Sequence record: PQ850622.1
DNA length: 64,000 nucleotides
From: Escherichia phage OliverMaurmann_Bas86
Direction: 5' to 3' (one strand)
The position numbers were made by a program, and so were the translations under genes. Each line of letters starts with the position of its first letter. The first letter of the stretch is position 1. Below the pieces are notes generated by a model. That model made no database searches, was not told the origin of the DNA, and saw nothing but the letters and a program-made list of their open reading frames with translations. Positions 55,390 to 55,655 of this stretch are shown here, in pieces.

Positions 55390-55417
55390 AAAAAAGCCCC
55401 ATCCGAAGACGGGGCGA
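55390..55417 (-). terminator. strong rho-independent terminator (reverse strand)
   Basis: On - strand GCCCCGUC-UUCG-GAUGGGGC followed by UUUUUUAU. Confidence 0.65.
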
Positions 55418-55575
55418 CCTGAAAGAGTGAACATGACCTCACTCATTTAAGAATCCTCGAAAAGACTCTTAAAAAAGCGGCCTCGTTAAAGGCCCGGTCA
55501 AATGACCATCCAATAGGGGTTGAACCATGCCAATGATTCACAAAGGGAGTTCCCTTTAGGTATCACTAGCTACGC

Positions 55576-55596
55576 AAAAAGCCGCACAAAGGCGGC
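55576..55596 (-). terminator. rho-independent terminator (reverse strand)
   Basis: On - strand GCCGCC-UUUGU-GCGGC followed by UUUUU. Confidence 0.45.
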
Positions 55597-55655
55597 AGAC
55601 ACAAAGACGCTCAAGAAGAGCGTCATAGTAGTTGACTACTGGTACAGAAGAGGGC

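Follow-up and report, generated by a model that had tools for sequence, protein, structure and literature searches.

Why should a short gap between two genes of a phage hold several hairpins that look like transcription terminators, and what do they do to the gene behind them? We wondered about this in a stretch of phage DNA of 64,000 nt (the window, that is, the whole stretch that was analysed). Its segment 54900-56150 shares 93-98% identity with phages of the Gordonclarkvirinae, genus Suseptimavirus (SU7, 101114UKE3, IME267, EK010, ECBP2 and others), and part of this segment shares 80-90% identity with about 77 records of Kuravirus, the phiEco32-like podophages of C3 morphotype. Judged by these identities, the window is a Gordonclarkvirinae (Suseptimavirus-like) coliphage. 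All genes of the region are located on the - strand. They belong to the block described for phage SU10 as early genes, which are read by the sigma-70 RNA polymerase of the host (PMC4281155). The locus is composed of the following elements.

56099-55656, - strand: 147-aa gene (ORF), last gene of the upstream early operon
55361-55655: spacer separating the 147-aa gene from the SleB-like hydrolase gene, 295 nt, its end set by the CTG start
55376-55369, - strand: Shine-Dalgarno sequence of the hydrolase gene, AAGGGGGU, 8-9 nt upstream of the CTG
55360-54950, - strand: SleB-like hydrolase gene, probable CTG start codon at 55360-55358

The upstream gene had been described from the sequence as encoding a basic protein (55656-56099), and this agrees with the computed pI of 10.4 (35 K+R against 13 D+E). 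The protein belongs to PHROG 11641, a family of unknown function; Pfam, PDB sequence and profile-against-PDB searches retrieved zero relatives. The downstream product matches Pfam Hydrolase_2 (PF07486) with 31.3 bits at a cut-off of 27, and its homolog in phage Paul is annotated as 'cell wall hydrolase'. The sequence-only reading (SleB-like hydrolase at 54950-55336) was therefore right about the identity of this gene, but most likely not about its start. Translation very probably begins at CTG 55360, not at TTG 55336. This start is favoured by the Shine-Dalgarno sequence ahead of it (AGGAGG in relatives), by substitutions between the CTG and the TTG that are synonymous in the hydrolase frame in relatives, by the lack of any indel there, and by divergent relatives (metagenomic contigs L030, L032 and L033) in which the homologous start codon is TTG following AGGAGG. 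Products called in L030 and L032 are 136 aa long, and the hydrolase CDS of Bas88 and Bas89 is annotated at 411 nt. With the start at CTG 55360, the spacer comprises positions 55361-55655.

Terminators were counted by a consensus scan of the - strand, which detected four sites in the spacer.

55624-55606, - strand: hairpin hp2, GACGCUC-UUCUU-GAGCGUC, 7 bp (5 G-C), loop of 5, dG -11.3
55605-55597, - strand: hp2 tail, UUUGUGU, a weak or marginal U-tract
55596-55581, - strand: hairpin Ta, GCCGC-CUUUGU-GCGGC, 5 bp, all G-C, loop of 6, dG -7.9
55580-55576, - strand: Ta U-tract, U5 abutting the stem
55494-55479, - strand: hairpin T3, GGCCUU-UAAC-GAGGCC, 6 bp (4 G-C), loop of 4, dG -7.9
55478-55471, - strand: T3 tail, GC and then U6; the 2-nt spacer is UC in four relatives
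55415-55396, - strand: hairpin Tb, GCCCCGUC-UUCG-GAUGGGGC, 8 bp (6 G-C), loop of 4
55395-55390, - strand: Tb U-tract, U6 abutting the stem

Stems of all four hairpins are G+C-rich, fall within the range of about 5-14 bp and carry a short loop, as expected of intrinsic terminators. The U run follows directly in Tb and Ta and after 2 nt in T3, and is marginal in hp2. Tb is the strongest among them (dG -14.8 to -16.2 kcal/mol, z = -3.4); hp2, T3 and Ta are individually weak to moderate, since either the stem measures just 5-6 bp or the U-tract is interrupted. All four are located on the same strand as the upstream gene, 32-260 nt past the stop codon of the 147-aa gene, and they are not bidirectional, since their reverse complements lack a U-tract. 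When the scan criteria were re-implemented for 2000 dinucleotide-preserving shuffles of the 295-nt spacer, the mean was 0.43 sites and the maximum 3. As none of the 2000 shuffles gave four sites, chance origin of the cluster can be excluded. Nine local hairpins are formed when a 324-nt stretch over the spacer is folded (z = -5.8). The surrounding 44-64 kb contain 36 terminator-like sites against 14.5 expected, the strong ones nearly all on the - strand.

The three hairpins that the sequence-only reading had placed on the - strand at 55390-55600 were all recovered by the scan, and its strong terminator with an 8-bp GC-rich stem, UUCG loop and U6 is an exact description of Tb. Its count of 'two, possibly three' has to be raised to four, because hp2 sits 6 nt outside that range. 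Free-energy scoring, which it had proposed as a check, gave dG of -7.9 to -16.2 across the four hairpins. The prediction that these co-oriented hairpins represent tandem rho-independent terminators is well supported by the comparisons given below. As far as sequence can tell, the cluster is a real, functional-looking element of an ordinary kind.

Further hairpins are found between the four sites.

55529-55570, - strand: hp4, long imperfect hairpin lacking a U-tract, core AAAGGG-NNNN-CCCUUU, centroid fold dG -19.1
55446-55473, - strand: hp7, conserved non-terminator hairpin, stem 10-12 bp, tetraloop U(U/G/A)CG
55425-55444, - strand: hp8, conserved hairpin of 7 bp with hexaloop GUCAUG, not a terminator

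We wondered if the same arrangement occurs in related phages. Every one of the 27 loci of Kuravirus and Suseptimavirus that hold the entire spacer, phiEco32 included, has both Ta and Tb, and Ta is also present in KBNP1711. An 89-nt segment containing Tb (window positions ~55425-55337) was matched in all 77 of the 77 phage records found with the intergenic query. The Kuravirus Tb, GCCCCGGC-UACG-GCUGGGGC, differs from that of the window by a compensatory change of one pair, from U-A to G-C, and by the loop, where one UNCG tetraloop (UUCG) is swapped for another (UACG). The U-tract of hp2 ranges from U3 to U5 in relatives, and Kuravirus hp2 is devoid of a U-tract or lost altogether. In the T3 stem of TH42, U-G is replaced by C-G and pairing is kept. 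Identity to 11 close relatives amounts to 94-98% in the spacer, 75-99% in the 147-aa gene and 96-99% in the hydrolase gene; the spacer at least equals the upstream gene in this respect.

Homologous terminators are already predicted in related phage records, and the kind of element is well known. The terminator annotated in SU7 (MZ342906, ARNold) is the hp2 homolog, the two annotated in each of WFI101126 (MK373770) and 4E8 (OQ689734) are Ta and Tb, and the one in Paul (MN045231) is Tb. These annotations are software predictions (ARNold, FindTerm and similar), and none of the related records examined annotates T3 or all four terminators. In Salmonella phage 7-11, which belongs to another family, an annotated terminator is located 36 nt upstream of the hydrolase homolog.

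More distant relatives were reached through the 147-aa family, which forms 11 clusters in a collection of 5.8 billion proteins. Its most divergent members (61-70% identity) are encoded on the metagenomic contigs L030, L032, L033 and L036, where gene order is the same as in the window and the spacer measures 500-590 nt. These spacers contain 2-3 co-oriented terminators, the stems of which are unrelated to those of the window.

Ta position, distant relatives: GGCCCC-CUCGU-GGGGCU followed by U6, or AAGCCCC-GAGA-GGGGCUU followed by U4
T3 position, distant relatives: stems of 16-18 bp (dG -25 to -30) followed by AUUUUUU
T3 position, alternative in distant relatives: CCCCGCC-UUCG-GGUGGGG followed by CU6
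Ahead of the hydrolase gene, L032: GCCCUGC-UUCG-GUAGGGC followed by U7

Since terminators at the same places keep their arrangement while their stems turn over, it is likely that terminator function is conserved and not sequence. This upkeep of hairpin plus U-tract despite sequence turnover is the strongest computational argument for function. A scan of IMG/VR with the downstream anchor gave 5 loci only, mostly known isolates.

Covariation was examined in an alignment of 16 distinct sequences over Ta, hp7, hp8 and Tb, controlled for register, with the register set manually. Standard pairs occupy 98.8% of cells, compared to 86.2% after shuffling (0/500 reach the observed value) and 36-48% with slid partners. 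Ten pairs are changed on both sides (hp8 6/7, hp7 3/10, Tb 1/8, Ta 0); these compensatory changes derive from just two or three lineages and hence from few independent events. One-sided stem changes in the close group are all wobble-preserving transitions, the sole break being a G-G in Ta of E20-1. The hp4 core is kept in the divergent L030, L032, L033 and L036 and deleted in Kuravirus. A lineage-specific insertion of 109 nt comprising hp4 and T3 was considered and ruled out, as distant relatives share the segment. Because these relatives have both hairpins, the segment is ancestral and was deleted in Kuravirus.

To see which transcripts could arrive at the cluster, we consider promoters on the - strand.

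59103, - strand: early promoter, TTGACA-16-TAAGAT, strong
~58946, - strand: early promoter, strong
58779, - strand: early promoter, TTGACA-17-CATAAT, strong; counterpart of an early promoter listed for SU10
54777-54772, - strand: weak predicted promoter, a bare perfect -10 TATAAT; annotated by the SU7 and 4E8 annotators

The first early operon, driven by these strong promoters, begins with a 303-aa gene and a strong terminator at 56910-56883; three small genes, the 147-aa gene and then the cluster come next. Ahead of its first gene lies a leader of about 0.9-1.25 kb of untranslated RNA. Scanning of the - strand from 57846 to 53509 revealed no sigma-70-like site of at least 9/12, and about a dozen ORFs are located there. 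Between Tb and the hydrolase gene, the scan likewise gave no promoter, nor did reading of these 35 nt by eye. Since this stretch is devoid of a promoter, the hydrolase gene appears to be reachable by read-through alone. The block behind the hydrolase gene starts at 54748 and could be served by the weak site at 54777-54772; apart from that site, no recognisable sigma-70 promoter was found for the downstream genes to ~53.6 kb. Such scarcity of promoters implies substantial read-through, unless the 54777-54772 site or promoters missed by the scan serve these genes.

Each of the early promoters is followed by another type of signal. The rrn-type boxA-spacer sequence GCTCTTTAANAA is present in four exact copies, all on the - strand within 59432-58651, where a simple base-count estimate (128,000 positions / 4^11) predicts ~0.03 exact matches. 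A fifth boxA copy with one mismatch is found at 58335-58324. Two of the phage copies share 16 nt, GCUCUUUAACAAUUUA, with the boxA-spacer of rrn; the boxA consensus is UGCUCUUUA in rrn and CGCUCUUA in lambda (PMC2724277). The motifs are conserved in phiEco32, NJ01, KBNP1711, ECBP2, SU7 and one metagenomic genome. A hairpin at 58691-58676 with a purine-rich loop (AGAAAG) is located 13 nt upstream of the last boxA, and its stem covaries (GUGUG/CACAC, GCGUG/CACGC, ACGUG/CACGU). Our literature search retrieved no paper connecting boxA to phiEco32. Protection against Rho is the obvious role of boxA in an untranslated leader. In addition, the complete rrn antitermination complex lowers intrinsic termination in vitro (PMC6614801), which would give a reason for placing terminators in series and leaves room for programmed read-through.

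Taken together, we infer that the first early operon has its 3' end in the spacer, where four serial terminators would limit transcription of the hydrolase gene; we assign to this reading a probability of about 0.72. The sequence-only reading had seen here a transcription-unit boundary. Conserved, co-oriented terminators agree with such a boundary, but the promoter-less hydrolase gene and the upstream boxA signals speak against an absolute stop. The cluster thus probably attenuates transcription strongly, or ends the operon in a leaky manner.

Under the preferred reading, host RNA polymerase would start at the strong sigma-70 promoters at ~59.1-58.8 kb and transcribe the early operon leftward. 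At each of the four sites, a G+C-rich hairpin formed in the nascent RNA beside a U run would release part of the polymerases, and the read-through fractions of the single sites would multiply to give the fraction that survives the whole series. The serial arrangement probably makes up for the moderate strength of three of the four terminators. Arriving polymerases are probably modified by Nus factors at boxA and partly resistant to termination, which would be a further reason for it. The promoter-less, CTG-initiated hydrolase gene would then depend on residual read-through, no other source of its transcription being visible, and its expression would stay low. Presence of a potentially harmful hydrolase in the early region would be partly explained in this manner: its gene has no promoter of its own, stands behind four terminators and begins with a weak start codon.

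A close counterpart is provided by the T1-T2 terminators of E. coli rrn operons (e.g. rrnB). There too, serial terminators end a unit with tandem strong sigma-70 promoters and with boxA in its leader, the boxA-spacer being identical over the 16 nt given above. In contrast to rrn, the phage unit is protein-coding, its four predicted terminators take up 230 nt and are interspersed with other hairpins, and a promoter-less gene adjoins the cluster downstream. The early unit appears, from its sequence, to be organized like an rRNA operon: strong promoters in tandem, boxA in the leaders and terminators in series. This rrn-like design is a more interesting lead than the terminator cluster itself. If confirmed, it would be a case of a lytic phage borrowing the rrn antitermination machinery of its host, and the phiEco32/Kuravirus group would offer a simple system to study how Nus-dependent antitermination and intrinsic termination are balanced. 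Phages of this group are used therapeutically.

The same signals can be read in another way, in which the cluster is a regulated antitermination checkpoint between immediate-early and delayed-early genes, like tL1/tR1 of lambda. Polymerases modified at the leader with its boxA and boxB-like elements would pass all four terminators and unmodified ones would stop; the modification would be brought about by Nus factors of the host, either on their own or jointly with a phage protein from the upstream operon, e.g. the 147-aa protein. We regard this as unlikely. It would account for four or five boxA copies after the early promoters and their conservation across the subfamily, for the covarying hairpin 13 nt ahead of the last copy, and for about a dozen ORFs in 57846-53509 on a strand lacking sigma-70-like sites of at least 9/12. 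However, the genes past the hydrolase gene could be supplied by the predicted promoter at 54777-54772. Likeness to the lambda N/nut system extends to terminators that follow soon after the first early genes, to boxA in early leaders and to a small basic protein encoded just ahead of the terminators. The phage differs from lambda in that its boxA is of rrn type, the hairpin is located upstream of boxA and the relationship to N is not significant.

The last point concerns the 147-aa protein, which was tried as a lambda-N-like candidate. It is basic, and its top conserved blocks, S(K/T)RS.KRR and C.GRT.GKQK.KG, coincide with weak collinear matches to lambda N. Yet this likeness is not significant (E = 0.08 and 0.84 in a single pairwise comparison), the protein has no Pfam, PDB or profile-against-PDB match, and PHROGs gave no support either. 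Moreover, lambda N is a disordered protein, and the conserved Cys and aromatic blocks of the 147-aa protein suggest a folded domain. A boxA candidate within hp2 was rejected too: CGCUCUUC (with the boxA-like CGCUCUU) agrees with lambda boxA in 7/8 positions, but it is incomplete, buried in the stem and lost in 4E8-type and divergent relatives, being replaced by ACGUUUCUCU or ACGUUCUCUU in 4E8, Bas89, KBNP1711, L030 and L032.

A fuller version of this reading, which we hold to be rather improbable, would give a virulent podophage a circuit of processive antitermination, with the four terminators as its checkpoint. Leader boxA and the boxB-like hairpin would load RNA polymerase with Nus factors and SuhB of the host, and the 147-aa protein might join them. 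Passage through the cluster, and through further early terminators at 56910, 53822 and 53600, would be restricted to polymerases with this modification. If true, a lambda-like timing step from immediate-early to delayed-early genes would precede the phage sigma factor switch; the phage group is virulent and later changes over to its own sigma factor (PMC12276001).

A different role was considered for the distal part of the spacer. The hp7-hp8-Tb module (55473-55390, ~85-90 nt) might be a small regulatory or 3'-UTR-derived RNA, with Tb as its terminator or 3' stabiliser and a functional hp8 loop. Three clean hairpins are predicted for the 90-nt module (MFE -35.4, z = -5.1, MFE ensemble frequency 0.33), and compensatory changes are concentrated in hp8 and hp7, where loops are conserved. 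The hp8 stem is fully exchanged among Suseptimavirus, Kuravirus and 4E8-type lineages (stems GAGUGAG/UUCACUC, AGCAACG/UGUUGCU and UGCAAUA/UAUUGCU) and its loop GUCAUG is invariant in 16/16 distinct sequences of the alignment. Similarly, enterobacterial 3'-UTR-derived small RNAs carry loop-conserved hairpins directly 5' of a strong terminator at the mRNA end. Unlike in these RNAs, the U-tail of the phage module is just 6 U, and the module is not intact in all relatives: in KBNP1711 a small ORF stands in place of hp7 and hp8, and in L030 and L033 the hp8 loop differs and Tb is missing after hp8. The compensatory changes, as stated above, represent few independent events.

Nor was a start site for such an RNA found. 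The scan detected no sigma-70-like site (at least 9/12) on either strand of the spacer, no conserved -10/-35 pair was seen in lineages compared by eye, and in every lineage promoter-like sites ahead of the module were absent by the same approaches. The sole Rfam matches are hairpin-plus-terminator small RNAs, but far below threshold, which zero families reached: the best in 55300-55700 (E up to 10) scored 21.9 bits, whereas the gathering score of the family is 141. Over-representation of the hp8 loop and linker motifs was looked for and not found. A small RNA is therefore possible but unsupported, and we consider it a rather improbable account of the module.

The terminators might also be leftovers of modular evolution, brought in with 'moron' cassettes, accreted at a recombination hot spot and having no collective role. 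The gap has indeed gained and lost genes. WFI101126 and Paul have an extra gene of 57-60 aa before Ta, and the small ORF of KBNP1711 is located between Ta and Tb. Behind Tb, an additional gene with a hairpin of its own (by eye, a helix-turn-helix-like regulator) is found in phiEco32 and pEC-N1203-2Af.1, and another gene in Bas92 and Bas94. It is exactly at Tb that nucleotide similarity to Kuravirus is interrupted. Since the gap is such a hot spot of cassette gain and loss, some terminators may be cassette-borne and not selected as a set. On the contrary, the spacer is at least as conserved as the upstream gene, and terminators at the same positions persist through complete turnover of their stems in distant relatives, which argues for selection rather than decay. 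This reading, very unlikely as an account of the whole cluster, concerns the origin of the terminators and not their working, and is compatible with the serial-terminator reading preferred here.

Rejected candidates include a tRNA or tRNA-like remnant in the spacer, as ARAGORN and Rfam give tRNA-Arg at 52393-52470 (52396-52470 in Rfam) alone; this is also the sole match at gathering score of Rfam 15 in the whole window. Neither is the spacer a repeated or mobile element: apart from 12-nt chance matches, the window contains no second copy.

Finally, the spacer contains several candidate ORFs.

55556-55744, - strand: candidate ORF
55443-55541, - strand: candidate ORF
a 29-aa ORF, - strand: candidate ORF
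55520-55663, + strand: candidate ORF

That they encode small proteins, as automated annotations of 29-39-aa 'hypothetical proteins' in 101114UKE3, Bas88, MLP3 and IME267 have it, is hardly credible, because indels of 1 and 2 nt among relatives with 94-98% identity disrupt the frame of each one, and the ORFs traverse terminator hairpins. Examples are 2 nt after hp2, 1 nt in the T3 U-tract, 1 nt after hp8 and 1 nt in the Shine-Dalgarno region. Each close relative has 2-5 gap positions in the spacer and 0 in the hydrolase gene. The 147-aa gene is gap-free in most relatives, with 2 gap positions each in SU7 and PAS59; the much more divergent ECBP2 is also gapped. ORF 55556-55744 had been called probably spurious from the sequence; this is well supported, its frame being broken by 1-2 nt indels in relatives. 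For annotation of these phages it follows that the cluster marks the 3' end of the first early operon, that three or four spurious 'hypothetical proteins' in GenBank records are to be removed, and that the start of the hydrolase gene is to be moved to the CTG codon.

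Further elements of the early region are as follows.

59432-58324, - strand: rrn-type boxA-spacer element GCTCTTTAANAA; four copies are exact and a fifth is nearly so
59519, 59103, about 58946 and 58779, - strand: strong sigma-70 promoters preceding boxA copies
58691-58676, - strand: hairpin GUGUG-AGAAAG-CACAC, 13 nt 5' of the last boxA
56910-56883, 59706-59686, 53600-53579 and 53822-53798, - strand: other strong terminator-like hairpins

The boxA copies are located in the early leader, which is long and untranslated. A strong sigma-70 promoter precedes each copy by 40-110 nt, and the copies are kept in phiEco32, NJ01, KBNP1711, ECBP2, SU7 and others. 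Occurrence of conserved boxA copies after promoters suggests that early transcripts may undergo Nus-factor antitermination, of which no mention was found in the literature searched. The hairpin preceding the last boxA has a purine-rich loop and a covarying stem, which reads GCGUG/CACGC or ACGUG/CACGU in NJ01, KBNP1711 and a metagenomic genome. Together with this boxA, it forms a boxB-like arrangement.

The 147-aa basic protein (56099-55656) belongs to a family whose best-conserved blocks are S(K/T)RS.KRR and C.GRT.GKQK.KG. Both blocks display weak, collinear and non-significant matches (E = 0.84 and 0.08) to lambda N, namely to its arginine-rich motif and C-terminus; profile searches found nothing.

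Strong terminator-like hairpins occur once every few genes of the early region, one example being a 12-bp stem directly 3' of the 303-aa gene. This spacing gives the early block the look of a cascade of attenuators.

Further sites with promoter-like sequence are the following.

12895-12929, + strand: 15-bp "terminator" of the scan, including TAATGTATA
54858-54832, - strand: 7-bp hairpin in the intergenic region that follows the hydrolase gene
54777-54772, - strand: perfect -10 TATAAT, 3' of the preceding hairpin
L032 (divergent metagenomic relative) 3670-3680: exact phage-sigma promoter motif TAATGTATA

The equivalent of the first site in SU10, lying between CDS23 and CDS24, is listed as a late promoter. 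The site in the window was thus rejected as a terminator and is, by its sequence and position, a predicted promoter set inside an inverted repeat. The loop of the 7-bp hairpin includes ACTGTATATAG, which is similar to the phage-sigma promoter motif TAATGTATA, and promoter annotations by others already cover the TATAAT site in SU7 and 4E8. The L032 motif lies about 50 nt past the second terminator of the spacer, and behind it come about 150 additional nt that are absent from the window.

Comparison of the window with loci L003, L015, L017, L018, L025, L026 and L028 indicates that the gap at 55360-55660 is a hot spot of cassette exchange. WFI101126 and Paul possess an additional 57-60-aa gene here, and KBNP1711 has one small ORF between the terminator-like hairpins Ta and Tb. 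Located 3' of Tb are a different gene in Bas92 and Bas94 and, in phiEco32 and pEC-N1203-2Af.1, an additional gene that by eye resembles an XRE-type helix-turn-helix regulator and has its own hairpin.

For the SleB-like hydrolase gene, the most likely start is CTG 55360 on the - strand, a rare initiation codon that has a Shine-Dalgarno sequence 8-9 nt upstream and would yield a product of 136 aa. Neither TTG 55336, the start in the ORF track, nor ATG 55255, used in several GenBank records, is probably the true start.
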